Below, one piece after another: positions 15,577-50,689 of a stretch of 64,000 nucleotides of DNA; within the stretch, counting starts at the first letter, position 1, and each line of letters begins with the position of its first letter. Origin of the DNA: a bacterium (GTDB taxonomy: Bacteria; Patescibacteriota; Minisyncoccia; Moranbacterales; UBA1568). The DNA lies in NCBI GenBank assembly GCA_021821305.1, contig JAKACP010000001.1:468349-532348 (forward strand). Direction: 5' to 3'. The position numbers and the translations under genes are program-made. The notes beneath the pieces were generated by a model. The model ran no database searches, had not been told where the DNA came from, and was given only the letters and a program-made list of their open reading frames with translations.

Positions 15577-15727
15577 GCGGCGATGCAAGATTCGGAAACA
15601 AGTATTGTAGTAATCGGCATCAAGAGAAAATCGGACAGCGTACAATAAAATATCTCAGCGTCGTTTCCGTAATTCGCTCACAGGGGGATCTATGAGCCGG
15701 ACAGGGGACAGGTTTTTTGGAGGTGCC

Positions 15728-15782
15728 CAAAAAGACCGACGATCGTCAGCCCGTTTTCGGGTAACGGCCGTCGGTCTTTTTG
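15728..15782. terminator. long hairpin with flanking A/T runs (bidirectional terminator-like) downstream of the L,D-transpeptidase
   Basis: caaaaagaccgacg … cgtcggtctttttg (13-14 bp stem) with inner cccg-tttt-cggg mini-hairpin. Confidence 0.45.
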
Positions 15783-15892
15783 ATTCTCCATTTCTTTCTT
15801 CATTCGTAGCCTTTCGATCGAAGGGCAGGGCATCGGAGTGCACCCTATTTCGGTGCCCGGCTTTTTGATTGTTTGTCGGAAGGGTCTATCCG

Positions 15893-15914
15893 GACTTTTC
15901 CGACAGGCTCTCAG
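15893..15914 (+). promoter_or_regulatory. conserved 22-nt intergenic motif GACTTTTCCGACAGGCTCTCAG (copy 1 of 4)
   Basis: Near-identical to 41518-41539 and 28521-28542, partial at 62287-62305. Embedded mini-hairpin cgga-cuuu-uccg. 135 nt upstream of the first secreted repeat-protein gene. Confidence 0.4.
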
Positions 15915-16047
15915 GGGGCCTCGGTCGATCGGACAAATGCGCGAGGCAAAGAGGTGCAAGCGCCTCGGGCATTCTGTCTGAAAAGTATTCCCGTTCGGCG
16001 CGTCGCGGCGCGCGGAGCGGAGCACTAGGAAGGAAGGTGAACAGACT

Positions 16048-16563
16048 ATGAAAACAATGTTTATGGTTCTTCCGGCGCTCGCCCTCGCTTTCGCGTTCGC
16101 GGCTCCGGCATCGGCGAATGGTGATGGCCATTGGTGGATGCACTTCAACGATGAGCTCAATGTGCAGAGTTCGAACAACGCGAACGTATACAACGTCACG
16201 AAGGCGGAGAGCGACACGGGCGACAACTCGACGTTTCTCAACTATGGATTCGGCTCGGGGAATATCGTGACCGGCGCGGCTATGGCCGGTGCGGACTCGG
16301 GTCTCTTCGTGAACAGCAACATGACGACCCTCGGGGCGCCGTGTGACTGTTTCGACGACGTGACGATCACGAGCGCGAACAACGCGGTCGTCTACAATAA
16401 GACGAAGGCCGAGGCGGAAACCGGCGAGAATACCACCACGGGCAATGGTGGGTACTTCGATGACTGGTACTACGGTGGAGGGAGCGGCAATATCGTGACC
16501 GGCGCCGCGGTAGCGGGCGCTACGTCGTGGACAGTCGTCAACTCCAACGTGACGGGTTTCTAG
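16048..16563 (+). CDS. secreted repeat protein R1 (signal peptide plus 2 copies of a TG(D/E)N-containing repeat)
   Basis: Signal peptide MKTMFMVLPALALAFAFAAPASA. Two internal repeats: NANVYNVTKAESDTGDNST…GSGNIVTGAAMAG…VNSNMT and NAVVYNKTKAEAETGENTT…GSGNIVTGAAVAG…VNSNVT. Strong SD (aggaaggaagg). Confidence 0.7.
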   Translation: MKTMFMVLPALALAFAFAAPASANGDGHWWMHFNDELNVQSSNNANVYNVTKAESDTGDNSTFLNYGFGSGNIVTGAAMAGADSGLFVNSNMTTLGAPCDCFDDVTITSANNAVVYNKTKAEAETGENTTTGNGGYFDDWYYGGGSGNIVTGAAVAGATSWTVVNSNVTGF

Positions 16564-16643
16564 CCGATTTTTTCCAGGAGGCGGGGGCGTGAACCGCGGA
16601 TCATCGCCCCCGCGCTTCCGGAAAGGGAAAAAATATCCCGAGT

Positions 16644-17108
16644 ATGAATTTCAAGACCTTTTTCTTCGCTCTCGTATCCTTTCTCCTGTTTTCGAGCGGC
16701 GCGGATGCCGTGATGGTCATCGAGAACAGCGGACAGAATACGATCATCGAGTCGAGGACGAGCGCGGTCTCGGATACCGGCGGGAATAGCGGATCGGGAA
16801 ACATCGAGACCGGTGACGCCAAGGCGACGAGCGCGACCGAAGTGCGTTCCTCCGGTAGCGAGACGACGGTAAAGGCGGAAGCCGTGTCGGAAGCGGACGG
16901 GCAGGAATCATCCGTCAGTGCGGTCCAGGAGGGTCCGGGGACGGTCTCCGTAGAGGAGCAAGAAGGTGGCGCGGAGGCGCGGATCGACGTGTCGGTATCC
17001 GAGGAAAGCGCGGCTGGTGCGTCCTCGGAAGAGGCAACAGGAGTGTTCGAAAAAGTCGGGGCGTTCCTGTCGGGAATAGGGGATTTCATACGGTCTATCT
17101 TCGAATGA
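16644..17108 (+). CDS. secreted protein R2 (signal peptide, one TGGN-type repeat, Ser/Glu-rich tail)
   Basis: Signal peptide MNFKTFFFALVSFLLFSSGADA. VIENSGQNTIIESRTSAVSDTGGNSGSGNIETGDAKATSA matches the R1/R3 repeat. Confidence 0.65.
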   Translation: MNFKTFFFALVSFLLFSSGADAVMVIENSGQNTIIESRTSAVSDTGGNSGSGNIETGDAKATSATEVRSSGSETTVKAEAVSEADGQESSVSAVQEGPGTVSVEEQEGGAEARIDVSVSEESAAGASSEEATGVFEKVGAFLSGIGDFIRSIFE

Positions 17109-17126
17109 TTTCATGAGAAAGAGAGT

Positions 17127-19874
17127 ATGTCGTCCGAACGGATGCGATATGTCTACGCGGCAAGCAGAGGGCAGAGGATATATTTCTCGCCCCGTTGGTC
17201 GCGCCCCGTTTCTCCGAGGAGGGTCTCTTGGATCCTCCCCGCGTACGCGCGGGCAGTTTTTCTGAAAAAATCCTTCATCATAAGCCTTTCTTTGGCTGTC
17301 GCGTTTTATCCCATGGCGCCGATGGCCGCGGTCGCGGACGATACCGCTCCGGAAAGCGAGCCCGTCCTTGAGTCCGAGTCACCGGAAGCGGATCCGGAAG
17401 AAGCGCCTGCGGAGGAGACTGCGGAGAAAGAACCTACTGAAGAGACTCCGGAAGAAGCACCGGCGGAAGAAGAAGCGGCACCCGAGAAGGTCGTCGAACC
17501 CGATGCCGAACCTGATATGGCTGTAACCGCGTCGTCGGAACCGGAAGTCGCGCCGGACCCGGAGGCGGAGCCGGAAACATCGGAAGCGTCTCCCTGTGAC
17601 GAGGGAGCGCCAGCGGATGAACATGAAGTGCCAGTGGATGGACATGAGGACGGCACGGTCATCGAGAGCTGTAACGAAGCCGAAACGGAGAGTGATGTGA
17701 CAGCCTCATCCGATACCGGTGAAAATGCCATCGTCATCGAGGAGGGTGATCCCGTCGGAGAGGAGGAAGGAACTGATACCGATGAATCGACGGAAGCGGA
17801 TACCGTGAGTGCCGCCGCCGAACCCGCCGTCGCGGAAGTCGCTCCGGATGAGGGCGTCGATTCCGCTATCGACACCGGCGATGCCGGCGCGACCGCCGTG
17901 CTCGTCCAGGACGTGAATACCGATATCGTGGGGAATGATGTCGACAAGGAAGTGATCGTGGCGGACGAGGAGACGGGAGATATCGACCTGCTCGAGGCAT
18001 TCGTCGGCACGGAGGAGGAAAATGGAGAAGCGGCGGAAACGAATCAGCCCGGGGAAACGGATGGATCCGGTGGCGGGGTCGCGGTCGTGAACGGCAATGA
18101 GGCCACCGTCGAGAATACCGTCGTCGCGACAGCCGAGACCGGGGACAACTCGATCGAGGGCGGCGACGGGGCGGCCATCGATACCGGGGACGCTTCCGCG
18201 CTCGCGGTGGCGGTCAACGTCGTCAACACCACGCTCGTCGGGTCCAACGGACTCCTCGCCATCGTCAATATTGTCGGCGACTATGCCGGCGATGTCATTT
18301 TGCCCGGCGAGGGCCTGCTCTCCTTCGGCGGAGGCGACCCGAGTCTGGAGACCGTCGAGAACGGGAACGAGGCGACCATCGAGAATACGGTCACGGCATC
18401 CGCCGATACGGGCGGCAATACGATCGAGGGTTCCGGCGACGCATCCATCGAGACGGGCGATGCGGTCGCCGTGGCGGAAAGCGATACCATCGCCAATACG
18501 AATTTCGTCGGCGACAACTGGCTTGTCGTCGTGGTCAATGTGTTCGGTGAATGGCTGGGCGGCATCGTCGACGGCGAGGATGCGGATGGCGACGGAGTCA
18601 TCGGATTCCTCTTCGGCGGCGGAGGGGAGAGCGATGGTTGCGACGCGGAGTGCGGCGATATCGTGTCGGTCTCGGGCAAGAACGTCGCCTATGTGGTCAA
18701 CACCGTCTCGGCGAGCGCGGACACGGGCGGCAACACCATCACCAGCGCGGACGATGCGTCGATCGTGACCGGAAACGCCTCCGCGACCGCCGCCGCGTTC
18801 AACTTCGTGAACAACAATATCGTCGGGCATAACTGGCTCCTCGCGGTCATCAACGTCTTCGGAAGCTGGGGTGGCAACCTCGTCTTCGCCTATCCGGACC
18901 TCTCGACCTCGGTCAGCGACGGGAGAGAGACCGCACTTCCCGGCGACACCCTCGAATATGTCGTCCGGGTCGAAAACGGCGGCATGGCCGACGCGGAGGG
19001 TGTGTCGGTGGCATTCCGGATTCCGGGATCATCCGAATACCGGTCCGCTTCCGACGGGGCGGAGCGCAACGGCGACACGGTCATCTGGACGCTTTCATCT
19101 CTGAAAAAAGGCGAAAGTAAGGGATTTACCGTGACGGTGGCAGTGGACGGCGGGACACCTGACGGAGCCGAGCTCCGCGCATACGCGCAGGCGGGGACGG
19201 ATACCGCCGAGAAGCATCCGGAGAACAACGTCTCAGACGACGAGACGACCGTCGATATCCCCGATGCGGTCATCACGCAGATCGACGCGGAATACGTTGA
19301 TGGAAACTCTTATCACACTGGGCTCCGCGTGAAGCGGAGTAAACCCGATGGCGCGTTCCGAGGCGGGGACACGGTCACGCATCGGATCACCGTCGAGAAC
19401 ACCGGCAAGAATCCAGCCTACGATGTCGTGGCGGAGGACTCGTTCGAGACACCCGACGGTACGCTTATCGCCACGCTCGAATGGAACATAGGCGGAATCG
19501 ACTCGGGCAAGGGCGTGCTCATCGAATACACGATCGCCATCCCGAACCAGGTCGGAGCCGGACAGTATCGCTACACCGCCCGTGCCGAGGGCAAACAGTA
19601 CGATGACGATGATATACGGTCCAAGAAGGCCTATGCCACGCTCACCATCGTCGGGTCCGCCTTCGCCGGGGCGTTCGGTGCGGAGACGGTCGAAGCGGCA
19701 TCGCCGGAAGACGTGACGATCCCGGGCGAAGTGCAGGGCGCGCAGGCCGCGACGGTCGGGGAGGTCGTCGGGAACGGGAAGTTCCCGCTCTGGATGCTTC
19801 TTCTCTCCGGGCTCGCCTATTTCCTCATGATCAACTGGTCGTTCTTCCCGAAAACTCACCGGAGAATCATATGA
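17127..19874 (+). CDS. large cell-surface protein R3: acidic Pro/Glu-rich linker, 3 tandem TG(D/G)N repeats, DUF11-like conserved-repeat domains, C-terminal hydrophobic anchor
   Basis: Three ~95-aa repeats (ENTVVATAETGDNSIEGGDGAAIDTGDASALAVAVNVVNTTLVG / ENTVTASADTGGNTIEGSGDASIETGDAVAVAESDTIANTNFVG / VNTVSASADTGGNTITSADDASIVTGNASATAAAFNFVNNNIVG). Then TLEYVVRVENGGMADAEGVSVAFRIP and VTHRITVENTGKNPAYDVVAED (DUF11-like). C-terminal PLWMLLLSGLAYFLMINWSFFPKTHRRII. True start uncertain (no start codon directly before the hydrophobic segment). Confidence 0.75.
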   Translation: MSSERMRYVYAASRGQRIYFSPRWSRPVSPRRVSWILPAYARAVFLKKSFIISLSLAVAFYPMAPMAAVADDTAPESEPVLESESPEADPEEAPAEETAEKEPTEETPEEAPAEEEAAPEKVVEPDAEPDMAVTASSEPEVAPDPEAEPETSEASPCDEGAPADEHEVPVDGHEDGTVIESCNEAETESDVTASSDTGENAIVIEEGDPVGEEEGTDTDESTEADTVSAAAEPAVAEVAPDEGVDSAIDTGDAGATAVLVQDVNTDIVGNDVDKEVIVADEETGDIDLLEAFVGTEEENGEAAETNQPGETDGSGGGVAVVNGNEATVENTVVATAETGDNSIEGGDGAAIDTGDASALAVAVNVVNTTLVGSNGLLAIVNIVGDYAGDVILPGEGLLSFGGGDPSLETVENGNEATIENTVTASADTGGNTIEGSGDASIETGDAVAVAESDTIANTNFVGDNWLVVVVNVFGEWLGGIVDGEDADGDGVIGFLFGGGGESDGCDAECGDIVSVSGKNVAYVVNTVSASADTGGNTITSADDASIVTGNASATAAAFNFVNNNIVGHNWLLAVINVFGSWGGNLVFAYPDLSTSVSDGRETALPGDTLEYVVRVENGGMADAEGVSVAFRIPGSSEYRSASDGAERNGDTVIWTLSSLKKGESKGFTVTVAVDGGTPDGAELRAYAQAGTDTAEKHPENNVSDDETTVDIPDAVITQIDAEYVDGNSYHTGLRVKRSKPDGAFRGGDTVTHRITVENTGKNPAYDVVAEDSFETPDGTLIATLEWNIGGIDSGKGVLIEYTIAIPNQVGAGQYRYTARAEGKQYDDDDIRSKKAYATLTIVGSAFAGAFGAETVEAASPEDVTIPGEVQGAQAATVGEVVGNGKFPLWMLLLSGLAYFLMINWSFFPKTHRRII
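18080..18880 (+). repeat. three tandem protein-level repeats (~280-300 nt period) inside R3
   Basis: Repeat cores at about 18109, 18380 and 18695 (gagaataccgtc…accggggacaac / gagaatacggtc…acgggcggcaat / aacaccgtctcg…acgggcggcaac). Confidence 0.6.
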
Positions 19875-20065
19875 GTGAAAATCGTACAAACGTGAACCTA
19901 TCGGGATGGCGGACGATATTCGTCCCGTTGCTCGTGACCGTGGCCGCGATCGCGTTTTGGATGACATATTACGGTTCCATCGGTTGGTGGCCGTTCGTCC
20001 TCTTCGTCATCTGGGTGGTGCAATACACGCGATTTTCGCAGAGGCGGAGGTCTTCGGATGATTGA
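19871..20065 (+). CDS. small 2-TM membrane protein (64 aa), hypothetical; start overlaps R3 stop (ATGA)
   Basis: MSENRTNVNLSGWRTIFVPLLVTVAAIAFWMTYYGSIGWWPFVLFVIWVVQY…; translationally coupled geometry. Confidence 0.4.
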   Translation: MSENRTNVNLSGWRTIFVPLLVTVAAIAFWMTYYGSIGWWPFVLFVIWVVQYTRFSQRRRSSDD

Positions 20066-20160
20066 CATCGGTGTTTTTTCGGTTCCGGCTCGGGTGTATA
20101 CTGGAACGGTAACGAAGACGGTGCGCAGGTCGACGTGCCGAAAACGGAGGGAAATTAATC

Positions 20161-20694
20161 ATGAAGACAAATGATATGAAGAAATCTCTTATCTTGTCCG
20201 GTGTCCTCACGTTCGCCTTTATTTTCATCGGTGGAGTCATTGCGACTCCCGTGTCTGCGGGAAAACCGGATACGACCGGATTCAATCAGTTCGGATATAA
20301 TTATGGAGCCAGATTATTTAACGGATTGGCGGATGGCGTCGATAAGAATCTTGATGGAAAGGTGTGGGGCAGTCCGACGTATGCGAGTGACAGGGTTGTC
20401 ATGAAATGGAATGCGGCTTGGGATGCATGCAATGCTGCCGGGTACGATGATCCGGACGTCTGCGCCGGAGCCTGGACCGATAACGAATGGAACGGAAAAG
20501 GCAAGGATGGTTCGGGCGAGGTGTGGCACTATAAAATCATCTGGGTTGGGTCAGAAGCCGAACAGAGTCCTTATTGGAAAGATGGCGGGTATTCCGTCTG
20601 GGGAAATTATGAAGTCATAATGGACCAGGGTACGTTCGAGGGAGTGCATACGTGGTATGCGCATGGCATACCCAACGGATATGGGGCCGAATAA
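20161..20694 (+). CDS. secreted Trp-rich hypothetical protein (signal peptide)
   Basis: Signal peptide MKTNDMKKSLILSGVLTFAFIFIGGVIATPVSA; W/G/Y/D-rich mature part. GC about 48-50 percent, well below background; start of lower-GC island. Confidence 0.6.
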   Translation: MKTNDMKKSLILSGVLTFAFIFIGGVIATPVSAGKPDTTGFNQFGYNYGARLFNGLADGVDKNLDGKVWGSPTYASDRVVMKWNAAWDACNAAGYDDPDVCAGAWTDNEWNGKGKDGSGEVWHYKIIWVGSEAEQSPYWKDGGYSVWGNYEVIMDQGTFEGVHTWYAHGIPNGYGAE

Positions 20695-20847
20695 TTGCAG
20701 GTAACTGTCGAAAACAGCCATATTCTTGGCTGTTTTCGCTTTTTTATACGGAGGAAAATGATGCCACGCTATACTAATGGGCGGAGGGAGCACATCATTT
20801 CCCGACGGGTGGTGGCGACGGTTTTGAGGAAGACAGGGAGGTTGCCC

Positions 20848-20876
20848 TTGACAGAACCACAAAATTCTGCTATATT
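20848..20876 (+). promoter_or_regulatory. consensus sigma-70 promoter (TTGACA-17-TATATT) for the GT2 gene
   Basis: TTGACA 20848-20853, 17-nt spacer, TATATT 20871-20876. Lies inside the listed ORF 20695.., so the true GT2 start must be downstream. Confidence 0.55.
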
Positions 20877-20988
20877 CTCATGTCTGCGATTGCACAGGCA
20901 ATTGTATTTTTTTGGCTTATTTGATGCAGACCGCATCGGGTATTTATTCAATGGGCTCCCCAGGGGAGACTGGTACGGAAGCAACATT

Positions 20989-23283
20989 ATGAATGGTAAA
21001 ACCCTACATAAGAAAACACGTGGCACGCATGCTGTCCGTAAAAGACAATGGGGAACCGAGCGAGAGACTCTGCCGCTGTCCAATCTCCATGACCAACCTT
21101 CAAGCTACGCCGTCGTATTCAGCAGGCTTTCAATCGTCCTGACGATACTGTTTTGGGCGATGTATGTCATTTCGGTTGTTATCCGCCAACTTATCGATGG
21201 CCCCCAAAACTATCACTTTACTGTGGAAGCCTTCGGCTACCTTATCGTCGTAACCTTCCTGACTTTCTCGGCGTTGGTGTACTTGATCGCTCGACAGGGA
21301 GCGTTTCAGCGTTTCAGTGCGCATGTGCGTGTTCCGCGGGCCGTACTCGAGAGATATTTTTCTACTAACCAGCCATCGATTACCGTTCTGGTTCCCTCCT
21401 ATAGCGAGGAGACCCAGGTCATACGGAAGACGATGTTGTCCGCGGCGCTGCAGGAGTATCCCGATATCCGCGTGGTCCTTTTGCTCGATGACGATCCCGC
21501 GAGGGTTCGCCCAGAGGACGTTCCTCGGCTTGAAGCGACACGTGCGCTGAGCGGTGAAATCAAGGCTCTTCTCTCCGAACCGCACAAACGCTTCGATGAA
21601 GCGTTGGCGCGGTTTGAAGATGCTGATCTCAAGGATGAAGCATTGATCAGGAACTCTATTCCGGAAATAGCGCAACATTATAAATGGGCGGCGAAATGGT
21701 TGGAAAAGCTTGCGGAAAAGGAGGTGGCCGAAGATCATGTGGACATATTTTTTGCCGATCAGGTGCTGCGTGAGCTTGCTAAAGACCTACGTCTCGTCGG
21801 GGAAGCGCTGATCGCCTCGCATAAGGAAGGCGCGCGATTCTCTGCGGATCGCCTATTGCAGCTCTATCACCGGCTTGTGTGGATATTCAATGCGGACTTG
21901 GAAGTCTTCGAGCGGAAAAGATATGTTTCGTTGTCGCATGAGCCGAACAAGGCGATGAATCTCAATTCGTACATCGGACTCATGGGAAGCGCATATCGGC
22001 AGGAGCAGACACCCGATGGAATCGTCCTGGTACCGATGGCGCGCCGTAGAGGCGCGGACATGATCGTCCGTGACAGCGAGTTCATACTTACGTTGGATGC
22101 GGACTCCATTCTGTTGCGGGACTATTGTTCGCGTCTGGTCTACTTCCTGCAGCAGCCCGATAACGCGGATGTCGCGGTCGCACAGACGCCGTACTCCTCG
22201 TTCCGTGGCGCTCCTACGCGTATCGAACGGTTGTCCGGCGCCACGACCGACATCCAACACATCATTCACCAGGGAATGAGCCATTATGGCGCGACTTTTT
22301 GGGTGGGGGCCAATGCGGTCATACGAAAACGCGCCCTCGAGGATATAGTCGAGAAAGAATGGGTAGGCGGATTCGAGATAAAGAGATACGTACAGGATCG
22401 CACGGTCATAGAAGACACCGAGTCGAGCATCGACTTGGCGCTTCATGGTTGGAGACTGGTAAATTATCCGGAGCGCCTCAGCTATAGCGCGACACCTCCC
22501 GATTTCGGGTCCTTGGTCATACAGCGTCGTCGGTGGGCGAACGGCGGCCTCTTGATACTTCCGAAATTGTGGACGCTGCTTCGCGAACGCAAAAATCAGG
22601 GCAAGCCCGTATCGAAGGTCGAGTTCATGATCAGGCTCAACTACATGGCCTCTATCGCCTGGTCGAATCTTGGACTCGTGTTTCTTCTCATGTACCCTTA
22701 CGATGGACGGTTATTGAGCTCACTGGTTCTTCTTGCCGCGACACCCTACTTTTTGGCCATGGCTGCCGATTTGAAATACTGCCGCTACAACTATAGCGAC
22801 ATCGTCCGCATCTATGGTTTCAATCTGATACTGCTTCCGGTCAATATCGCTGGAACGCTTAAATCGCTGGAGCAAGCGTTGACTACTAAAAAAACACCGT
22901 TTGCTCGAACCCCGAAGGTCAAGGACCGGACAGCGGTGGCGTTGCCGTATGTCCTTTCGCCTCTGCTTATCGTCGGTTTCTCGTTCTTTACGTTGTGGCG
23001 CAATGTCGAAGGGGAGAATTGGGGGAATGCGGCATTCGCCGGATTCAATACCTTCGCGGCCACATGGGCTATCGTCTCGTATATCGGAATCAAAAATCTG
23101 TTTGTTGATGTGTGGCTCGGGTTGACGGACATGCTCTATGTCGAGACTGCTCCCGGCAAAGTGTCTCAAAAACCCGTCGAAACCGAATCCGAGTTCAATT
23201 GGAAGAGCGTGCTGTATCATGGAGAAGCAGGTGGCGTCGCACCCCATGAATCCATGAGCCGCGCGATGTTACATGAAAAGTAG
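20989..23283 (+). CDS. processive family-2 glycosyltransferase (cellulose/chitin-synthase-like beta-glycan synthase), polytopic membrane protein
   Basis: N-terminal TMs. GT-A core VLVPSYSEE…LLLDDDP…TLDADSILL (DxD)…IEDTES (TED)…QRRRWANGG (QxxRW). 4-5 C-terminal TMs. First in-frame ATG downstream of the promoter taken as start. Confidence 0.8.
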   Translation: MNGKTLHKKTRGTHAVRKRQWGTERETLPLSNLHDQPSSYAVVFSRLSIVLTILFWAMYVISVVIRQLIDGPQNYHFTVEAFGYLIVVTFLTFSALVYLIARQGAFQRFSAHVRVPRAVLERYFSTNQPSITVLVPSYSEETQVIRKTMLSAALQEYPDIRVVLLLDDDPARVRPEDVPRLEATRALSGEIKALLSEPHKRFDEALARFEDADLKDEALIRNSIPEIAQHYKWAAKWLEKLAEKEVAEDHVDIFFADQVLRELAKDLRLVGEALIASHKEGARFSADRLLQLYHRLVWIFNADLEVFERKRYVSLSHEPNKAMNLNSYIGLMGSAYRQEQTPDGIVLVPMARRRGADMIVRDSEFILTLDADSILLRDYCSRLVYFLQQPDNADVAVAQTPYSSFRGAPTRIERLSGATTDIQHIIHQGMSHYGATFWVGANAVIRKRALEDIVEKEWVGGFEIKRYVQDRTVIEDTESSIDLALHGWRLVNYPERLSYSATPPDFGSLVIQRRRWANGGLLILPKLWTLLRERKNQGKPVSKVEFMIRLNYMASIAWSNLGLVFLLMYPYDGRLLSSLVLLAATPYFLAMAADLKYCRYNYSDIVRIYGFNLILLPVNIAGTLKSLEQALTTKKTPFARTPKVKDRTAVALPYVLSPLLIVGFSFFTLWRNVEGENWGNAAFAGFNTFAATWAIVSYIGIKNLFVDVWLGLTDMLYVETAPGKVSQKPVETESEFNWKSVLYHGEAGGVAPHESMSRAMLHEK

Positions 23284-24889
23284 TTCAAATGCTATGAAAG
23301 AGTCCGGCGCGGAAAAAGTAAACATCGGCCCCAGAAGGCGACTGTCCCCATGGCGGGTCTTGAGCGCTATCCTGATAGTGGGCGGGCTTGTCTATGGAAC
23401 GACCCTTGGCTGGAGCGAACGGCGGGAAACCGAGTCCGCTGCCGTTCATAAGCCATGGTTTGCCGCCTATGTGGATGTGACATCCACTCCGGCGTATGCC
23501 TTTGAGCAATTGGGGTCGACTACGACACCCGCTGTCGTGCTTTCTTTTATCGTGTCTTCCGCATCCGATGCTTGCATGCCTACTTGGGGAACCCACTATA
23601 CGCTGGATGAAGCGGCAGCATCGCTTGATCTCGACCGCCGGATCGCCCGGCTCCAACAGCAGGAGGGCAGAATAGCGGTGTCTTTCGGGGGAGCGTTGAA
23701 TTCCGAGCTTGCCCTTGGATGCACGGATCCCGACAAGCTATTCGCCGCGTATGAATCCGTCATAGAACGCTATACTATCGATACCGTAGACTTGGACATC
23801 GAGAACCAGGCGCTGAAGGATATCGAGGCATCCAAACGCCGTGCAGACGTCATCGCACGGCTGCAGGAACATTATCGGAGCAAGGATAAAAATTTGGCGG
23901 TTTGGCTGACTTTGCCGGTGACTCCACAGGGCCTGACTCCGGAAGGTACGGATATTGTCGCTCAAATGCTCTCAAGCGGAGTGGATTTGGCCGGAGTCAA
24001 CTTGATGACCATGGACTACGGCGCAAGCCGTGCGGAGGGTCAGACGATGCTCGAGGCGTCCGAACGGGCCCTGATCGAGACACATCGCCAGCTCGGAGTG
24101 CTCTACAAACAGGCCAGGATCAATCTGAACGAAGGTTCGCTGTGGCGGAAGATCGGAGCGACGCCGATGGTCGGTCAGAACGATGTCGTGGAGGAGGTGT
24201 TCACGCTTGAAGACGCCAAGGCTTTCAATCTCTTCGCGCGCGACCGTGGCATCGGTCGGATGTCGATGTGGTCGGCCAATCGGGATATCCCTTGCGGAGA
24301 GAACTATGTAGACGTAAAAGTCGTTTCTGATTCGTGCAGTGGTGTAAAGGCTTCCAAGTTCAGTTTTGCTCAGGCATTGAGCGATGGGTTCGACGGGGAT
24401 CTCGCGCAGAGTGCCAATATTTTGACGACGGAAGACCCGGAAAGCAACACGTATGTGGTCGATGACCCGGAGAGAAGTCCGTATCAGATATGGCAAGGGA
24501 CGGGAGCGTACCCGAAAGGAGTGAAGGTCGTCTGGCATGGCAATGTCTACGAGGCGAAATGGTGGACGAAGAACGACCTGCCTGACAACCCTGTGTTGCA
24601 ATCATGGGAAACTCCTTGGCAATTGATCGGGCCTGTCTTGTCGGGCGAAAAACCCATTCAGCAGGCGACGCTTCCCAGTGGAACATATCCGAAATGGTCT
24701 GGAGAGGTCGTGTACGAGGGTGGCGACCGCGTGTTGTTCGAAGGCATGCCCTTTCAGGCAAAATGGTGGAATCAGGGCGAAAGCCCGGCCGCCTCTGCCG
24801 CTAATTCGGACAGTTCGCCTTGGATCCCGCTTACGCAGTCGCAAATCATGGACATACTCAAAGAGTTCGATGAAACTACAGAAGAATAG
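23273..24889 (+). CDS. GH18 chitinase-like glycoside hydrolase with N-terminal TM anchor and two C-terminal CBM5/12 chitin-binding modules
   Basis: GH18 catalytic motif IDTVDLDIEN (DxxDxDxE). C-terminal repeats YQIWQGTGAYPKGVKVVWHGNVYEAKWWTKNDLPDNP and GTYPKWSGEVVYEGGDRVLFEGMPFQAKWWNQGESP fit CBM5/12 (…Y.AKWW..G..P). Alternative start at 23294. Confidence 0.8.
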   Translation: MKSSSNAMKESGAEKVNIGPRRRLSPWRVLSAILIVGGLVYGTTLGWSERRETESAAVHKPWFAAYVDVTSTPAYAFEQLGSTTTPAVVLSFIVSSASDACMPTWGTHYTLDEAAASLDLDRRIARLQQQEGRIAVSFGGALNSELALGCTDPDKLFAAYESVIERYTIDTVDLDIENQALKDIEASKRRADVIARLQEHYRSKDKNLAVWLTLPVTPQGLTPEGTDIVAQMLSSGVDLAGVNLMTMDYGASRAEGQTMLEASERALIETHRQLGVLYKQARINLNEGSLWRKIGATPMVGQNDVVEEVFTLEDAKAFNLFARDRGIGRMSMWSANRDIPCGENYVDVKVVSDSCSGVKASKFSFAQALSDGFDGDLAQSANILTTEDPESNTYVVDDPERSPYQIWQGTGAYPKGVKVVWHGNVYEAKWWTKNDLPDNPVLQSWETPWQLIGPVLSGEKPIQQATLPSGTYPKWSGEVVYEGGDRVLFEGMPFQAKWWNQGESPAASAANSDSSPWIPLTQSQIMDILKEFDETTEE

Positions 24890-24953
24890 AACGTGCCAAA
24901 ATAAAGTGAAAGAAAAATCGCTCCGATACGATGTATCGGAGCGATAGCTGCTT

Positions 24954-25646
24954 CTAGTGGCGGTGGCCATGGTGATCGTGGTCATGATCAGCCTCCCTGT
25001 TTTTCCCTAGGACCGCGTCGGAGAGCGTCATGAAGACATATTTCCCGGTGCGGAGCCAGATGAAAAGCACGATCGCGAACGAGACGTAGACATCGGCGAG
25101 GGGGAATCCCGCCCAGGCGATCGCGATGCCGATGAGGGCCAAGACGCTGCCGCTTATGTCCGCCACGATGTGGAGTTTCTGCCATGCGTGGGTGATGTTG
25201 CGGTGCTCGTCGGGTGCCTCCTCGTGGATCAGGTACTGCCACGCGTTGACGCTGATCGCGGCTATGGCCATGACCGCGGCTCCGAGGATGTGGAGCTCGG
25301 TCGGTGCGTTGAGCCGTTCGAGGGCTTCCATGGCGATATACCACGCGATGATCGATATGAGGACGGCGCTCACCATCCCGCCGATCTTGCGTATCCGCCG
25401 CTCGTGGTCCGAGAACCGCGACTTGTGGGCGACGAAGGCCGAGAGGATGTTCTCGGTGCCGTCGAAGATCGTGTGGAAGGCGTCCGCGAGGAGCGCCATG
25501 CTGCCGGCGAGGATGCCTCCGGCGGCCTCGATGATAAACATGAGAAACGAGAGCTTGGCGAGCTTGATATATCGCGCGCTCTCCTCCTTGCAGACGCAGG
25601 TTCCGGTTTCTTGGTACCGGCACGCGGCGATGTGGCCATTTGACAT
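24954..25646 (-). CDS. cation diffusion facilitator (CDF) family transporter, TMD-only with His-rich C-terminal tail
   Basis: LLADAFHTIFD signature and 6 TMs. Only 230 aa (no cytoplasmic CTD); ends HDHDHHGHRH. N-terminal Cys cluster CRYQETGTCVCKEE. Confidence 0.8.
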   Translation of the reverse strand: MSNGHIAACRYQETGTCVCKEESARYIKLAKLSFLMFIIEAAGGILAGSMALLADAFHTIFDGTENILSAFVAHKSRFSDHERRIRKIGGMVSAVLISIIAWYIAMEALERLNAPTELHILGAAVMAIAAISVNAWQYLIHEEAPDEHRNITHAWQKLHIVADISGSVLALIGIAIAWAGFPLADVYVSFAIVLFIWLRTGKYVFMTLSDAVLGKNREADHDHDHHGHRH

Positions 25647-25822
25647 GATACGCCTCCTTTGACGTCGGTTGTGAAAAAACTGGTTCAGGGAAGTATGTGG
25701 GGAAACGGGTCTTGGGTCAAGCTCGGGACGACAGACTCGGGATTCTTGCCTTCCTCGGGGTTTTTTGATACCGTAATACTGTTCTGGGCCCCGAGGGTCG
25801 GAAGGGGCCCGTAGCCCCTCAC

Positions 25823-26098
25823 ATGGATTCGATTATGTTTTATGTGTATGTGTTAAAAAGCAGGAAAGACGCTAGTTTGTACGTCGGTTATACGAATGAT
25901 TTGAAAAGGCGTTTTGAAGAGCATAACAACGGAAAAAGTTTTGCTACCAAGAACAAAGCACCTTTTGAGATCGTTTATTACGAAGCGTATCAGTCGAAAA
26001 GCGATGCGAAGTATCGTGAAACGAATCTCAAAAGGCATTCTGGGGCATATACGCACCTGAAGAAAAGGATTCAAAACAGCCTTATCGAATCCATGTGA
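25823..26098 (+). CDS. GIY-YIG nuclease superfamily protein (UPF0213-like)
   Basis: FYVYVLKSRKDASLYVGYTNDLKRRFEEHN is the GIY-YIG motif. AT-rich gene ending 1 nt before tRNA-Ala. Alternative start at 25838. Confidence 0.75.
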   Translation: MDSIMFYVYVLKSRKDASLYVGYTNDLKRRFEEHNNGKSFATKNKAPFEIVYYEAYQSKSDAKYRETNLKRHSGAYTHLKKRIQNSLIESM

Positions 26099-26099
26099 G

Positions 26100-26172
26100 G
26101 GGCCTGTAGTTAAGTGGTACAACGCTGCATTCGCATTGCAGAGGCGGGAGTTCGATTCTCCCCAGGTCCACC
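26100..26172 (+). tRNA. tRNA-Ala (anticodon CGC)
   Basis: Manual fold: acceptor GGGCCTG/CAGGTCC with G3:U70 wobble (Ala identity); anticodon stem CTGCA/TGCAG; loop TTCGCAT (anticodon CGC); T-arm GGGAG-TTCGATT-CTCCC; discriminator A. CCA not fully encoded. Confidence 0.8.
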
Positions 26173-45210: not shown

Positions 45211-47004
45211 ATGCACGCGAACGAAATACGGCGCCGCTTCCTCGAATTTTTCCGGAAACGCGGCCACGCCATAATCCCATCCGCACCACTCGTTCCCGAG
45301 AACGATCCTTCGGTCCTGTTCACGACGGCGGGCATGCAGCCGCTCGTACCGTATCTTCTCGGCGCGCCGCACCCCGCGGGCAAGCGGATCGCGAACTCGC
45401 AGAAATGCGTTCGGACGCAGGACATCGACGAAGTCGGCGACAATACGCACGACACGTTTTTCGAGATGCTCGGCAACTGGTCGCTCGGGGACTATTTCAA
45501 GGATGACGCGATCAAGTGGAGCTATGAATTCCTCACCTCGCGGGAAGAGGGGCTCGGGCTCGATCCGAATCGGCTCTACGTGACCGTGTTCGGGGGCAAT
45601 GACGATGCTCCGCGCGACGAGGAATCGTTCGCGATCTGGAAAAGCCTGGGCATCCCCGAGCACCGTATCTATTTCATGACCACGGAACCCTCGGGCAAGG
45701 AACCGAACTGGTGGAGTCCGGGCGACAACGGCCCCTGCGGCCCGGATTCGGAGATGTTCTACGATGTGACCGAGGACGGCCTCGGCGATCTTACCAAGGA
45801 GGAATACATGGCGGCGGACGACCGGCAGGAGGTGGTCGAGATCTGGAACGACGTCTTCATGGAATACGCGAAGAAGGACGGAAAAGTGACGGGCAAGCTC
45901 ACGACCAAGAACGTCGATACCGGGGCCGGCCTCGAGCGCCTCGCGATGGTCATGCAGAAGACCGACAACGTGTTCGCCACCGATCTCTTCGCTCCGCTCA
46001 TGACAGCTATCCGGACGCTGGCGAAAAACGACTGGGACGAGCGCGCGGCGCGCATCGTGGCGGATCATGTCCGGACGAGCGTCTTCCTCGTCGGTGACGG
46101 GGTCTCGCCGTCCAATACCGATCAGGGATATATTTTGCGGAGGCTGTTGCGCCGCGCGGTCCGCTATGCCGATACGCTCGGGATGCCGGGAGGAAGCCTC
46201 GCCTCGCTCGTCCCGACGGTGCTCGACACCTACGCCGAAGCCTATCCCGATCTCGCGGAAGCGAGCGAGGCGATCACGGGAGCGATACTTGCCGAGGAGG
46301 AGAAATTCCGCCGGACGCTCGCGCGCGGCATGAAGGAATTCGAGAAACGGATCGCGTCCGGAGGGCTCACCGGGACGGACGCGTTCGAGCTTTTCTCCAC
46401 GTATGGATTTCCGCTCGAGATGACGGTCGAGCTGGCCTCGGAAAAGGGCGTGACGTTCGACCACGCGGCGTTCGCGGAGGAGTTCCGCCGGCACCAGGAC
46501 CTCTCGCGCACCGCGTCCGCGGGCAAGTTCAAAGGCGGACTCGCGGATCACAGCGAACAGGTGACCATGCTCCATACCGCGACCCATCTCATGCTCGCCG
46601 GCCTCCGGAAATACCTCGGGGACCATGTCCACCAGGCGGGATCCAACATCACCGAGGAACGGACCCGGTTCGATTTCACGCATCCGGAAAAAGTCCCGCG
46701 CGAGACGCTCGACCTCGTGGAAGCCTATGTCAACGAGGCGATAGCGCATAAGTGTCCCATGACCATCGAGCGCATGCCCAAGGACGCCGCGAAGGACCGC
46801 GGAGTGGAGGGGAGCTTCTGGGACAAGTATCCGGAGACGGTGGATGTCTATATGGCCAAGGCGGAGGACGGCACCGTATATTCCCAGGAGCTCTGCGGCG
46901 GGCCGCACGTGAAGAATACCGGTGACATCAAGGGGACATTCCGTATCATCAAGGAAGAGGCGTCGTCGGCGGGTGTTCGGAGAATCAAAGCCGTGATAGA
47001 ATAG
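45211..47004 (+). CDS. alaS: alanine--tRNA ligase, short form (catalytic plus editing domains, no C-terminal DHHA1/oligomerisation domain)
   Basis: N-terminal class II AlaS core (FLEFFRKRGHAIIPSAPLVPENDPSVLFTTAGMQ…GNWSLGDYFK). Editing HxxxH (HTATHLMLAGL) and GGPHV. 597 aa versus ~870 typical. Confidence 0.85.
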   Translation: MHANEIRRRFLEFFRKRGHAIIPSAPLVPENDPSVLFTTAGMQPLVPYLLGAPHPAGKRIANSQKCVRTQDIDEVGDNTHDTFFEMLGNWSLGDYFKDDAIKWSYEFLTSREEGLGLDPNRLYVTVFGGNDDAPRDEESFAIWKSLGIPEHRIYFMTTEPSGKEPNWWSPGDNGPCGPDSEMFYDVTEDGLGDLTKEEYMAADDRQEVVEIWNDVFMEYAKKDGKVTGKLTTKNVDTGAGLERLAMVMQKTDNVFATDLFAPLMTAIRTLAKNDWDERAARIVADHVRTSVFLVGDGVSPSNTDQGYILRRLLRRAVRYADTLGMPGGSLASLVPTVLDTYAEAYPDLAEASEAITGAILAEEEKFRRTLARGMKEFEKRIASGGLTGTDAFELFSTYGFPLEMTVELASEKGVTFDHAAFAEEFRRHQDLSRTASAGKFKGGLADHSEQVTMLHTATHLMLAGLRKYLGDHVHQAGSNITEERTRFDFTHPEKVPRETLDLVEAYVNEAIAHKCPMTIERMPKDAAKDRGVEGSFWDKYPETVDVYMAKAEDGTVYSQELCGGPHVKNTGDIKGTFRIIKEEASSAGVRRIKAVIE

Positions 47005-47063
47005 GGGCACGGCAGGCGATCGTCCGTCTCCGTCCCAGTTCCTTGAAGAAAGGAGAATCGTTC

Positions 47064-47258
47064 ATGAAATCAGCCGACATCATATCTTTTCCCGATCCGA
47101 GCGAACGAAAAAAAAGGCACTCAAAAAAGCGACGGCAGGCGAGACTCATCGATTGCCTTTTCGGTGAAATCGACCTCTTCCGACTCCTCCGGGACTCCGA
47201 AGAAAAGATCATCGCCCTCCGTCGAAAAAACAAACGGGATCCCGAGAGGAACCCATGA
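47064..47258 (+). CDS. small basic hypothetical ORF (64 aa) with good SD
   Basis: gaaaggagaatcgttcATG. MKSADIISFPDPSERKKRHSKKRRQARLIDCLFGEIDLFRLLRD… No homology recognised. Confidence 0.25.
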   Translation: MKSADIISFPDPSERKKRHSKKRRQARLIDCLFGEIDLFRLLRDSEEKIIALRRKNKRDPERNP

Positions 47259-47320
47259 ACCCCGAGCGCTCGGCCGCGAGGGGATTTTTGTTTCTCGAAA
47301 AAGATTGTCTTGAAAAAAGA

Positions 47321-47346
47321 AAATCTCCGTATGGATTCATACGGAG
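47321..47346 (-). terminator. rho-independent terminator downstream of minus-strand gene 47369..47854
   Basis: tctccgtat-ggattc-atacggaga, with T-run on the minus strand (aaagaaaa on plus at 47308-47320). Confidence 0.45.
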
Positions 47347-47368
47347 ATAGCGGTCGAATGTGGTCGCA

Positions 47369-47854
47369 TCAGCTGTCCCTTCGGAGAAGTTTCGGGGAAA
47401 CGGAATAGATGTTCCCGTTTACCGTATCCAGAACCAGGACGCGTTTCGCGGGAATGGTAGTTCCGCCTCCTCGCCGGAACGCTACGATTGTTTTTGTATA
47501 CGACTCCGCTCGTGCGGCGAAGTCGGTGAACTCACAGGGATACATGCGGAGGGATGGTCTTCCTTCCTCGACCGCAAGGACCGAAAGAAGGTGGTCGTTC
47601 AAGGATGTCTCACTGAGGACGGAATGCGTAAATCGCATCCGATCGCCCGGATACAGACAATCCTCTTCCGCCTCCTCCGGAAGATCCGATTCAAGTACGA
47701 AGGTCTTGACCAGCGCTCCCGCGTTCGGTTTCTGCGGTATCACTTTGTTGAATGATTCGCACCAGGGAACATCCCCGAAAATCGATTCATCCCATTCCCT
47801 TGGTTCCTTGCTGTGAGGAAAAGGTTCATAGTACATCATCAGTGCGTGGCCCAT
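47369..47854 (-). CDS. hypothetical protein X1 (161 aa), expressed from duplicated promoter/leader cassette
   Basis: MGHALMMYYEPFPHSKEPREWDESIFGDVPWCESFNKVIPQKP… GC about 54 percent. Strong SD (aaggag) inside the conserved leader. Confidence 0.6.
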   Translation of the reverse strand: MGHALMMYYEPFPHSKEPREWDESIFGDVPWCESFNKVIPQKPNAGALVKTFVLESDLPEEAEEDCLYPGDRMRFTHSVLSETSLNDHLLSVLAVEEGRPSLRMYPCEFTDFAARAESYTKTIVAFRRGGGTTIPAKRVLVLDTVNGNIYSVSPKLLRRDS

Positions 47855-48011
47855 CTCGGTCTCCTTCTTTCAGATTGAAAGGTTCGCGCGTCTGCGCAAG
47901 GAGATACCCCGGAAATCCGGGGAACAGGCAGACACACGACAGAGACCCTCGCGGGCGCTTTTGTGAATGTACTCAGCTGACCATCGTACTCCAAAAAGGC
48001 TTTTTTGTCAA
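47855..48011 (-). promoter_or_regulatory. consensus promoter (TTGACA-17-TACGAT) plus about 120-nt structured 5-prime leader, copy A of a duplicated cassette
   Basis: Minus strand: TTGACA (48006-48011), 17-nt spacer, TACGAT (47983-47988). Leader has CCC-GCGA-GGG (GNRA) hairpin, CCCCGG-AUUU-CCGGGG hairpin, and CUCCUU…AAGGAG pairing that can sequester the SD. About 97 percent identical to 48609-48765. Confidence 0.55.
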
Positions 48012-48089
48012 GAGATTCGGATGTCTGTTCCCGGAATCCGAGTGAAAAAACAACCCCTGAGAGAATTTTCTCTTCAGGGGCTTCGTGTG

Positions 48090-48608
48090 TCAGACATGGA
48101 CCGATTGTTCCGGTTTCATGTTGTCGCTTCGTCTGCGGGCGAAGAACTTGGAAATGGCCGCGTTGTATGCGGCGAGCGTTGTTTCGTTGCTTTCCATTTC
48201 CTGCATCAAACGGTTGAACCGGACATCGAAATCGCACATGAGCACCGCTTTCGTCTGCAAGTCGAGAGACCGGCTCTGGGTGGAGCGGGATATCTCGCAT
48301 ATTATTTCCGCGAGGTCGATCTGGTTCCGTTGAAGCGCGAAAAGGACTTCCTTTCTGGCCACGCTCAGCTCCTCCGCTGATTTTCCCGCGGTCAGTTCCG
48401 ATATTTCGAGCTCGGATGCTTCCGATTCGAATTCTTGGAGCCAGTCCGAATCCGGATTCTCCTTCAGGGCGATCGTCTCGTCCGTCGGAGCTTTCTTGCC
48501 GAATAAGGAAATGGTGTGGACCACTTCCTGCAGGGATGTCGCGAGGAATCCGGCGAACCTGGGAAAAGAAAGGTGCTGATAGCGACCTGCTAGCTGGTGA
48601 AAGTTCAT
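48090..48608 (-). CDS. hypothetical protein X2 (172 aa), expressed from the second copy of the promoter/leader cassette
   Basis: MNFHQLAGRYQHLSFPRFAGFLATSLQEVVHTISLF… Not similar to X1. Confidence 0.55.
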   Translation of the reverse strand: MNFHQLAGRYQHLSFPRFAGFLATSLQEVVHTISLFGKKAPTDETIALKENPDSDWLQEFESEASELEISELTAGKSAEELSVARKEVLFALQRNQIDLAEIICEISRSTQSRSLDLQTKAVLMCDFDVRFNRLMQEMESNETTLAAYNAAISKFFARRRSDNMKPEQSVHV

Positions 48609-48765
48609 GGTTATCTCCTTCTTTCAGATTGAAAGGTTCGCGCGTCTGCGCAAGGAGATACCCCGGAAATCCGGGGAACAGGCAGACACACGACAGAGAC
48701 CCTCGCGGGCGCTTTTGTGAACGTACTCAACTTGCCATTATACTCCGAAATGGCTTTTTTGTCAA
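48609..48765 (-). promoter_or_regulatory. consensus promoter (TTGACA-17-TATAAT) plus structured 5-prime leader, copy B
   Basis: Minus strand: TTGACA (48760-48765), 17-nt spacer, TATAAT (48737-48742). Leader 48611-48712 is identical to copy A. Confidence 0.55.
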
Positions 48766-48916
48766 GATACCGGGGTAATCCGGATATCGTTGTCGAAAAT
48801 CCAAAAAAACGTTTCATTTTTGCCCCTCCTTCTGAAAAAAGGCTTTTCAGAGATTTCGATGCCTTCAGTATAGCATGAAAATGGCTTGTAAAAAACCCTG
48901 TCCGGACACCGAAACA

Positions 48917-48944
48917 TTGACAAAAATCGGAAAACCCGTAGAAT
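48917..48944 (+). promoter_or_regulatory. sigma-70-like promoter for rplU (TTGACA-16-TAGAAT)
   Basis: TTGACA 48917-48922, 16-nt spacer, TAGAAT 48939-48944. Confidence 0.5.
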
Positions 48945-48976
48945 GGGGAATGTTACTTCTTTTTGATGGCATCCTT

Positions 48977-49288: not shown

Positions 49289-49305
49289 CTTCCTGCGGAC
49301 AAATG

Positions 49306-49342
49306 AAAACCGCCCATCATTATGACTGGGCGGTTTTTTGTC
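49306..49342. terminator. bidirectional rho-independent terminator after rplU (and after minus-strand gene Y1)
   Basis: aaaa-accgccca-tcattatgac-tgggcggt-tttttg. Confidence 0.55.
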
Positions 49343-49343
49343 G

Positions 49344-49679: not shown

Positions 49680-49691
49680 GAGATGTCCCTT

Positions 49692-50678: not shown

Positions 50679-50689
50679 ACTGAAAACAC

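Follow-up and report, generated by a model that had tools for sequence, protein, structure and literature searches.

The DNA analyzed here, hereafter the window, is a stretch of 64,000 nucleotides from contig JAKACP010000001.1 of a bacterium of the Moranbacterales (Patescibacteriota). At 20-26 kb, where the GC content is 49-56% as against approximately 58-64% for most of 1-47 kb, it carries two overlapping genes encoding a membrane glycosyltransferase of family 2 (GT2) and a glycoside hydrolase of family 18 (GH18) with two carbohydrate-binding modules (CBMs) of the chitin-binding type CBM5/12. An earlier note, made from the letters of the window, had described the region from about 20.1 to 26.1 kb as a lower-GC island in which a processive synthase and a matching chitinase would make and trim a chitin-like polymer. 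The lower GC content was borne out by measurement, and an open reading frame (ORF) scan together with Pfam searches recovered all of the genes and domains in the order that the note had listed. The elements of the two-gene unit are as follows.

20848-20876, + strand: promoter TTGACA-17-TATATT, matching at 11/12 positions, with an extended -10 TG
~20885-20913, + strand: leader hairpin with a U7 tract, beginning right after the -10 element
20989-23283, + strand: GT2 synthase gene, 764 aa; the open frame spans 20695-23283
GT2 motifs (residues): LLLDDD 164-169 (DD 167-168), NKAMNLN 320-326, DAD 370-372, IEDTES 474-479, QRRRW 512-516, PFARTPK 637-643
21502-21924, + strand: four-helix-bundle insert of GT2, ~aa 172-312, within the GT-A domain between the DD motif and NKAMNLN; pLDDT 85-97
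23273-24889, + strand: GH18 gene, 538 aa, overlapping the GT2 stop codon (23281-23283)
24917-24945, no strand assigned: terminator hairpin with a perfect 13-bp stem, between the convergent genes for GH18 and a cation diffusion facilitator (CDF) transporter

Homologues of GT2 align from residue 1-2 of the 764-aa protein, which places its start at the ATG at 20989. With this start, the near-consensus promoter noted earlier is present but does not lie inside the upstream ORF, as had been proposed; it is located in the 294-nt intergenic region 20695-20988, past the terminator (20709-20738) of a preceding gene for a Trp-rich secreted protein. The 11-nt overlap of the two genes was confirmed for the GH18 start at 23273, the ATG at 23294 being a possible alternative start. 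The 5' leader (20883-20988) folds into three hairpins (z=-2.4), and the segment 20847-20914, comprising the promoter and the leader hairpin, is kept in two related loci, L085 (90%) and L086 (80%), despite different upstream genes; the base changes in the stem of the leader hairpin in these loci still permit pairing. Rfam gave no match for the leader, whether the whole window was searched at the gathering threshold or 20690-21010 at E<=1, and a riboswitch or cyclic di-GMP element was rejected for this reason. The leader hairpin with its U7 tract may act as a transcription attenuator. At the other end, the L086 cassette closes with the terminator hairpin as well, conserved at 96.6%. Judging from the sequence, the segment 20847-24965 is a self-contained transcription unit consisting of the promoter, the leader, GT2, GH18 and the terminator.

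The synthase and its membrane-anchored partner

GT2 matched PF13632 (Glyco_trans_2_3) at 1.6e-36, and hydrophobic segments flank its glycosyltransferase domain on both sides. Relatives of GT2 were found in 317 loci of a one-genome-per-species collection, of which the best 80 were used for the neighbour analysis. Across 80 sequences from three phyla, 168 residues of GT2 are at least 97% conserved, including every catalytic residue, and each of the motifs DD, DAD, ED (475-476) and QRRRW reaches this level. The processive-synthase motifs listed previously stood as regards D, DxD, QRRRW and the flanking transmembrane segments, except that the supposed 'TED' reads I-E-D. The AF2 model of GT2 had a pLDDT of 75 and a pTM of 0.76. 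With its GT-A motifs, and with the transmembrane helices on both sides and the overall fold seen in the predicted structure, GT2 has the features of a processive membrane GT2 synthase.

The placement of GT2 among the known synthases was based on hidden Markov model (HMM) scores and on Foldseek ranking. In the Foldseek comparison of the AF2 model, BcsA ranked first (1.7e-12), followed by plant CesA (~1e-10), HAS (2e-9) and chitin synthases (9e-6 to 4e-4), the highest TM-scores, 0.46-0.50, being those with plant CesA. BcsA was also the only solved relative detectable by sequence (1e-15 with the single sequence and 4e-12 with a profile of 58 sequences). The NCBIfam scores were 90 bits for CelA, 55 for PgaC_IcaA, 27 for MdoH and 23 for NodC, all far under the respective cut-offs: GT2 did not reach the equivalog cut-offs of BcsA (TIGR03030, 90.3 vs 699.1; PRK11498, 39.6 vs 992), PgaC/IcaA (TIGR03937, 55 vs 422.3) or NodC (TIGR04242, 22.6 vs 550). 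The Chitin_synth_2 profile gave 20.4 bits against a gathering threshold of 27, over residues 222-264 only (43 residues). Pfam revealed no PilZ domain in GT2, and neighbour clustering revealed no BcsB-like partner.

A further distinctive feature of GT2 is its four-helix insert. Modelled alone, the insert had no match in the PDB, CesA included (best E=0.8), and we found it only in this GT2 family, in 404 cluster representatives, always at the same position and in proteins of the size of GT2. Since there was no PDB match, homology of the insert to the P-CR of plant CesA or to a known domain was rejected. A positional analogy is left, as the helical P-CR insert of plant CesA sits between the first Asp motif and DxD. 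The restriction of detectable solved relatives to BcsA, the family scores below cut-off, the unique insert and the lack of PilZ and BcsB indicate that GT2 represents a distinct cellulose-synthase-like family marked by the four-helix insert. Sequence and predicted fold trace this family back to BcsA-type cellulose synthases and not to chitin synthases, NodC or HAS. The public names of its members are just 'glycosyltransferase family 2 protein' or 'cellulose synthase/PNAG synthase-like'.

GH18 contains one N-terminal transmembrane segment (aa 29-47), as expected of a type II membrane-anchored protein, followed by a catalytic domain at ~60-375 with the motif DTVDLDIE (170-177; catalytic D173, D175 and E177). 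Two CBM5/12 modules follow at ~403-450 and 470-520 (PF02839, 41.1 vs a gathering threshold of 26.2, in two stretches). The membrane anchor, the intact DxxDxDxE motif and the two C-terminal modules claimed previously were thus all confirmed by Pfam and the motif scan. Among 79 aligned GH18 sequences, the DxDxE residues are at least 97% conserved, and 76 residues in total reach this level across the three phyla, including all catalytic residues, four Cys, and the aromatic residues (Trp, Tyr) of the CBMs. The four conserved Cys point to an extracytoplasmic location of the enzyme. Its nearest solved relatives are deposited as chitinases, namely 9buf, 'Exochitinase 1' (1.5e-49), and 2dsk, an archaeal, Pyrococcus-type enzyme (1.1e-21). 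On account of the DxxDxDxE motif and the homology to solved chitinases, GH18 is predicted to hydrolyze beta-1,4-linkages of N-acetylglucosamine (GlcNAc), and the inactive, lectin-like GH18 that the earlier note had named as contrary to its proposal was not seen. An exact look-up of the window GH18 in the assembly collection returned no record.

The arrangement recalls two cellulose systems. As in BcsA/BcsZ, a processive membrane GT2 with D, DxD, ED and QxxRW is encoded alongside a hydrolase, BcsA being the best match in both sequence and fold; the motifs NKAMNLN and PFARTPK of GT2, the latter with FARTPK at the gating loop, presumably correspond to KAGNLN and FxVTxK of BcsA. The two proteins differ, however, in that they share only ~16% identity (90 bits vs 699 for TIGR03030), GT2 has neither PilZ nor a BcsB or BcsC partner and contains an insert of ~140 aa, and, in place of a soluble GH8 enzyme, a GH18 that is anchored in the membrane and bears chitin-binding modules serves as the partner. 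Plant CesA likewise works with a type II membrane-tethered glycosidase, the GH9 enzyme KORRIGAN; as the GH family is different and the insert is without a PDB match, no homology is implied by this likeness.

Pairing, distribution and movement of the cassette

We found that a GH18 homologue adjoins GT2 in 79 of the 80 best loci, full-length and including the N-terminal region and both CBMs, the 80th locus being cut by the end of its contig. The pair was kept in every complete related locus examined, amounting to 83 loci in three phyla. Carriers occur among the Patescibacteria (Moraniibacteriota, Saccharibacteria, WWE3, Collier-, Woese- and Dojkabacteria), the Bacillota (Paenibacillus, Cohnella and Paenisporosarcina) and the Actinomycetota (Microbacterium, Leucobacter, Blastococcus, Geodermatophilus, Modestobacter, Actinoplanes, Acidimicrobiia and others). 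All identified carriers of the GH18-paired form belong to monoderm lineages. The best 120 homologues of GT2 are 65-93% identical to it over the full length, those with names coming from metagenome-assembled genomes (MAGs) of Patescibacteria (Moranbacteria and Parcubacteria). The earlier note had considered such a pair unusual for a bacterium; with 317 loci in a collection holding one genome per species, it is widespread but uncharacterized.

The two genes are arranged in tandem in ~47 loci and divergently in 28, all actinobacterial, and in 8 further actinobacterial loci a single ORF runs across both. The gene-called protein P0112 (1294 aa) is a natural fusion of GT2, a linker, a transmembrane helix, GH18 and two CBMs, in this order, which puts the C-terminus of GT2 on the cytoplasmic side of the membrane and the chitinase on the outer side. 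Another long protein, P0264 of Microbacterium schleiferi (1183 aa), was rejected as a fusion, as BLASTP detected no GH18 region and the extra length is a Pro/Gln-rich tail. The pairwise distances of GT2 and GH18 correlate with r=0.93, and both genes show dN/dS values of 0.04-0.11, indicating strong purifying selection. Between the window and its closest long relative, L081, the identities are 83% for GT2 and 77% for GH18, as compared with 69% for SecA and 58% for YkuD. When the 3,707 ORFs of 84 loci were clustered all against all, no third conserved neighbour emerged. A cluster of ORFs from 32 loci, considered as a third partner, is by its coordinates most likely an antisense shadow ORF within the GH18 gene.

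The adjacency, the correlated distances, the P0112 fusion and the lack of any other shared neighbour support the view that GT2 and GH18 form a functional pair, as the coupling of synthase and hydrolase proposed in the earlier note would have it. The alternative that a catabolic chitinase stands by chance beside a functionally unrelated biosynthetic GT2 draws only on the fact that GH18-CBM5/12 enzymes are usually catabolic. Adjacency across three phyla in tandem, divergent and fused forms, together with co-evolution, effectively refutes it, and the genes in the window are moreover translationally coupled or overlapping.

In a tree, the pair fell into two clades, one containing most Actinomycetota and broadly following taxonomy, and the other containing the Patescibacteria with Bacillota nested inside and Microbacteriaceae as a sister group. 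Five MAG contigs (L001, L003, L009, L011 and L018) are labelled as Bdellovibrionales, Micavibrio, Gammaproteobacteria or Pseudomonadales; their cassettes nest in the Patescibacteria clade at 63-80% identity, and the taxon labels may be wrong.

The cassette of the window is surrounded by the following further features.

20073-20846, + strand: ~775-nt insertion relative to L085, outside the module, carrying the Trp-rich gene and its terminator
20161-20694, + strand: Trp-rich secreted protein gene, 177 aa, 10 Trp, N-terminal hydrophobic signal
24954-25646, - strand: CDF transporter gene, 230 aa, Cation_efflux profile
25823-26098, + strand: GIY-YIG gene, 91 aa, PF01541 at 6.5e-18
26100-26172, + strand: tRNA-Ala(cgc), beginning one base past the GIY-YIG stop codon

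The upstream genes of the window encode MurG, MurC, SecA, a dCMP deaminase, QueA, a class A penicillin-binding protein (PBP) and a YkuD L,D-transpeptidase, and the neighbourhood of the pair is therefore cell-wall related (MurG, MurC, class A PBP and YkuD). The Trp-rich, CDF and GIY-YIG genes were not found beside the pair in the other loci among the best 80.

The tRNA gene 1 nt after the GIY-YIG gene was confirmed, whereas an island running from 20100 to 26172 and bounded by these two genes was not upheld. The GC content at third codon positions (GC3) is 0.83 for SecA, 0.79 for YkuD, 0.74 for a DUF11 protein and 0.85 for the CDF gene, as compared with 0.62 for GT2, 0.63 for GH18, 0.55 for the Trp-rich gene and 0.47 for the GIY-YIG gene. 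Composition is thus non-native only at 20073-24965 (0.55-0.63) and in the GIY-YIG gene (0.47), as against the native 0.74-0.85, and the CDF gene, being native by this measure, splits the proposed island. The CDF protein consists, as had been stated, of only the membrane domain of the Cation_efflux profile with a His-rich tail and is without the usual cytoplasmic C-terminal domain; its gene looks like a resident one, not a truncated island end. The 91-aa GIY-YIG protein is a stand-alone domain and not part of the module. No integrase or transposase family was found by Pfam among the ORFs at 15.6-27 kb (main ORFs scanned, 14.4-28.4 kb). The direct repeats to be expected at the tRNA were not found either, the window containing the 23-nt 3' end of the tRNA a single time when up to 3 mismatches are allowed, and the only direct repeats over 14-30 kb are internal ones of DUF11-type genes.

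Two other segments of the window are of lower GC. The stretch at 60000-63500, directly after DnaK (58178-60163), has a GC of 0.33-0.42, the strongest compositional anomaly of the window, and holds four same-strand ORFs without a Pfam match (60221-60994, 61013-61642, 61733-62242 and 62740-63441); it would make a more likely island than the region at 20-26 kb. The other, at 47000-51000 (0.50-0.56), lies beside recR (50085-50738, minus strand) and also contains several ORFs without a Pfam match.

Comparison with relatives delimited the conserved block. L085, the closest relative (90% nucleotide identity), matches the window at 19953-20072 and then at 20847-23666, and this jump identifies the Trp-rich gene with its terminator as a separate insertion. 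L086 (80% identity) matches at 20847-20914 and 20946-24965, including the terminator, and has unrelated upstream genes. From the limits of these matches, the conserved block extends from promoter to terminator, 20847-24965, and in close relatives it occurs in three different upstream contexts. Mobility is thus indicated for this promoter-to-terminator cassette, which is non-native in composition, and not for the whole of 20.1-26.2 kb. The Trp-rich protein was rejected as a member of the system, as it is not beside the cassette in other loci, is absent in L085 and has homologues in unrelated contexts. Its large, unannotated family comprises 978 homologues (55-93% identity) without a Pfam domain, the gene always standing alone after a long upstream spacer; where the sources are named, the names are generic or belong to Patescibacteria (Collierbacteria), apart from one MAG labelled 'archaeon'.

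The 140-kb contig of L081 shares with the window the order SecA, dCMP deaminase, a 122-aa protein, YkuD, GT2 and GH18, so that the pair lies in the same chromosomal neighbourhood in both. In L081-L084, a tRNA-Ala(cgc) gene of 94% identity lies between YkuD and GT2 (L081, 9772-9843; L084, 2139-2210); since its counterpart in the window lies past the downstream end of the cassette, the DNA around the cassette was evidently rearranged locally. Relative to L081-L084, the window has ~4.5 kb of extra DNA of native codon composition between YkuD and the cassette (15600-19900), which codes for repeat-rich surface proteins: two ORFs without a Pfam match (16048-16563 and 16644-17108) and a 915-aa DUF11/CARDB protein that has repeat units in common with them.

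The GC3 of the cassette is 0.51-0.63 in close relatives, as compared with 0.45 (L086) to 0.83 (window) for the flanking genes, and this steadiness against variable flanks speaks for lateral transfer of the cassette between related lineages. Across phyla, the GC of the cassette follows that of the host (r=0.99 over 30-75% GC). Transfers between phyla would therefore be old, the cassette having adjusted to each host, and movement among close Moranbacteria-like lineages, where the GC is not adjusted, would be more recent.

The product and the proposed mode of action

Our preferred reading, to which we assign a probability of roughly 55%, is that the pair is a two-protein machine for an extracellular polysaccharide, consisting of a BcsA-like synthase and a tethered, trimming GH18, with a chitin-like product. 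GT2 would polymerize a UDP-sugar at the cytoplasmic face and extrude the chain through its own transmembrane channel. GH18 would be anchored in the same membrane by its one N-terminal helix beside the synthase, or joined to it covalently in the fusions, the catalytic barrel and both CBM5/12 modules lying on the outer side. The CBMs could capture the emerging chain, which the enzyme would then cut or trim for release, length control or remodelling, in the manner of BcsZ for bacterial cellulose and KORRIGAN for plant cellulose. The cassette may move laterally as a whole unit.

The sugar is suggested by the partners of the synthase. Catalysis by GH18 enzymes relies on the 2-acetamido group of the substrate itself, and because of this need we expect the product most probably to be a chitin-like polymer of beta-1,4-GlcNAc, or chito-oligosaccharides. 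Longer members of the insert-bearing GT2 family carry C-terminal fusions to a CE4 polysaccharide deacetylase (3), the cyclic di-GMP domain EAL (4), a LytR-CpsA-Psr ligase (2) or a DMFA2_C amidase-like domain (1). The fusion proteins, all from outside the window, are P0250, P0279, P0289, P0290, P0353, P0358, P0347, P0315, P0369 and P0303; names of Nitrospira/Nitrospiraceae occur for one member each of a CE4-fused cluster (P0358) and the DMFA2_C-fused cluster, and the other fusion clusters are metagenome proteins. On this evidence, the insert-bearing family looks like a modular, uncharacterized family of exopolysaccharide synthases. The CE4-fused P0353 is 40% identical to GT2 over 681 aa and has in common with it the motifs NKAMNLN, DADS, QTPY, WVGANA, IEDTESSIDL, QRRRWANGGL and F(A/S)RTPK. 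A CE4 deacetylase and a substrate-assisted GH18 hydrolase independently point to an N-acetylated product, and GH18 with CBM5/12 favours a beta-1,4 linkage. We infer a GlcNAc polymer from these partners only, namely GH18, CBM5/12 and the CE4 fusions of the 40%-identical paralogues, and the claim of a chitin-like product is supported indirectly, on the side of the partners, but not on that of GT2, which sits with the cellulose synthases.

Several points weigh against this reading. GT2 groups with cellulose synthases by both HMM and Foldseek, the outcome that the earlier note had itself named as contrary to its proposal, and is nearer to them than to any known GlcNAc polymerase (CelA 90 bits, PgaC 55, NodC 23). 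Chitin_synth_2 is sub-threshold, chitin synthases come last in the Foldseek order, and we take KAxNLN and FxxTxK of GT2 to be of the BcsA type. The choice of UDP-GlcNAc over UDP-glucose as donor has no residue-level argument behind it. The PF00704 score of GH18, 26.4, is just below the gathering threshold of 29.6. Making a polymer and hydrolyzing it with an enzyme of the same unit looks futile, unless the hydrolase is under regulation, and our literature searches found no description of the GT2-GH18 pair.

These affinities could mean that GT2 makes cellulose or another beta-glucan, with GH18-CBM cleaving GlcNAc-containing peptidoglycan so that the chain can cross the monoderm wall. This fairly unlikely alternative is consistent with BcsA being the sole solved relative by sequence, with cellulose synthases topping the Foldseek list, with the monoderm nature of all identified carriers, and with the position of the pair beside YkuD and PBP genes in the window and in L081-L084. 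There are GH18 enzymes, such as hevamine, that cut peptidoglycan, CBM5 modules are capable of binding to cellulose, and in Streptomyces the synthase CslA depends on wall-opening helpers. However, the closest relatives of GH18 are chitinases with the same active-site signature, wall hydrolases usually bear LysM, SH3b or peptidoglycan-binding modules and not two CBM5/12, and the CE4-fused paralogues, with near-identical active-site motifs, point to an N-acetylated product. The Streptomyces CslA-GlxA-CslZ/LpmP system makes a tip glycan with an accessory copper oxidase, endoglucanase and lytic polysaccharide monooxygenase. It resembles the present pair as a synthase-dependent beta-glycan system of a monoderm with accessory enzymes acting outside the membrane; in the present case, however, none of these three accessory enzymes is conserved beside the cassette.

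If the product is instead an N-acetylated chain, it could be poly-beta-1,6-GlcNAc (PNAG), as in PgaC/IcaA, and GH18 an unusual PNAG-processing enzyme. PgaC_IcaA is the second-best NCBIfam match, and the CE4 partners of the paralogues mirror PgaB and IcaB. The 55 bits are, however, far under the cut-off of 422, the gating-loop and KAxNLN motifs are BcsA-like in look, and GH18 and CBM5/12 recognize beta-1,4 chitin, the known PNAG hydrolases being GH20 and GH153; we regard PNAG as very unlikely. More generally, PgaC/PgaB, IcaA/IcaB and NodC/NodB share with the present system the combination of a GT2 GlcNAc polymerase with a product-modifying enzyme, and the paralogues of GT2 are CE4-fused like PgaB, IcaB and NodB. 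They differ from it in that GT2 scores far below the PgaC and NodC cut-offs and has a hydrolase, not a deacetylase, as its partner.

The same machinery could also release short, soluble chito-oligosaccharides serving as signals or adhesins and not as a structural polymer. Coupling to the hydrolase is obligatory and 1:1 in the fusion proteins, and NodC shows that chito-oligosaccharides can be made by bacteria. Two CBM5/12 modules are, however, what one expects for a ligand that is insoluble or crystalline, and sequence gives no distinction between oligosaccharide output and polymer trimming; we consider oligosaccharides as the sole output quite unlikely. The chito-oligosaccharides of NodC are also among the subjects of a paper on bacterial chitin synthases (CHS) (PMC5122149).

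Eukaryotic chitin synthases and proteobacterial CHS agree with GT2 in the proposed product and in the QRRRW motif. They are unlike it in that they are not detectable relatives by sequence, Chitin_synth_2 being sub-threshold and chitin synthases lowest in Foldseek. According to that paper, the proteobacterial CHS were acquired from eukaryotes and occur, beside DUF1501 and DUF1800 genes, in other taxa than the present pair, the Gammaproteobacteria and Alphaproteobacteria (Goncalves et al. 2016, PMC5122149). These eukaryote-derived genes of a few proteobacteria, with predicted activity, are the only bacterial chitin synthases reported. By sequence comparison, the proteobacterial CHS appear to be unrelated to this GT2 family.

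Significance for the carriers

The principle of a synthase having its own hydrolase is familiar. New for bacteria are the family of the synthase, the choice of a GH18 enzyme as partner and the product that is implied. The data suggest, but do not prove, that an uncharacterized, chitin-like surface polymer is made and trimmed by many single-membrane bacteria. Chitin is regarded as a eukaryotic polymer, which bacteria degrade and of which they make short Nod-factor backbones. A bolder possibility, which we put forward tentatively and at less than even odds, is that the pair represents a second origin of chitin synthesis, from a cellulose-synthase-like ancestor, widespread in Actinomycetota, Bacillota and Patescibacteria. 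The two-gene unit would then lay down a surface layer or fibres of chitin and would have been exchanged between the ultrasmall Patescibacteria and Gram-positive lineages of the kind that serve as their hosts. The grouping of Microbacteriaceae and Bacillota with the Patescibacteria clade, and not with other Actinomycetota, speaks for such an exchange, and some Patescibacteria live attached to other bacteria.

If the cassette does make a beta-1,4-GlcNAc polymer, chitin would be produced by a large and unannotated range of bacteria from soil, water and hosts, among them the minimal-genome Patescibacteria, in which these genes are more conserved than SecA, and there would be a second evolutionary route to a chitin synthase. 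Staining with wheat-germ agglutinin or for chitin, as well as environmental surveys of GH18, would need rereading, and a compact two-gene system for producing chitin or chito-oligosaccharides in bacteria would be at hand. The question is directly testable in cultured carriers, namely Microbacterium, Leucobacter, Paenibacillus, Cohnella, Blastococcus, Geodermatophilus and Actinoplanes. For the Patescibacteria themselves, the polymer would be a candidate for the surface structure by which they attach to host cells.

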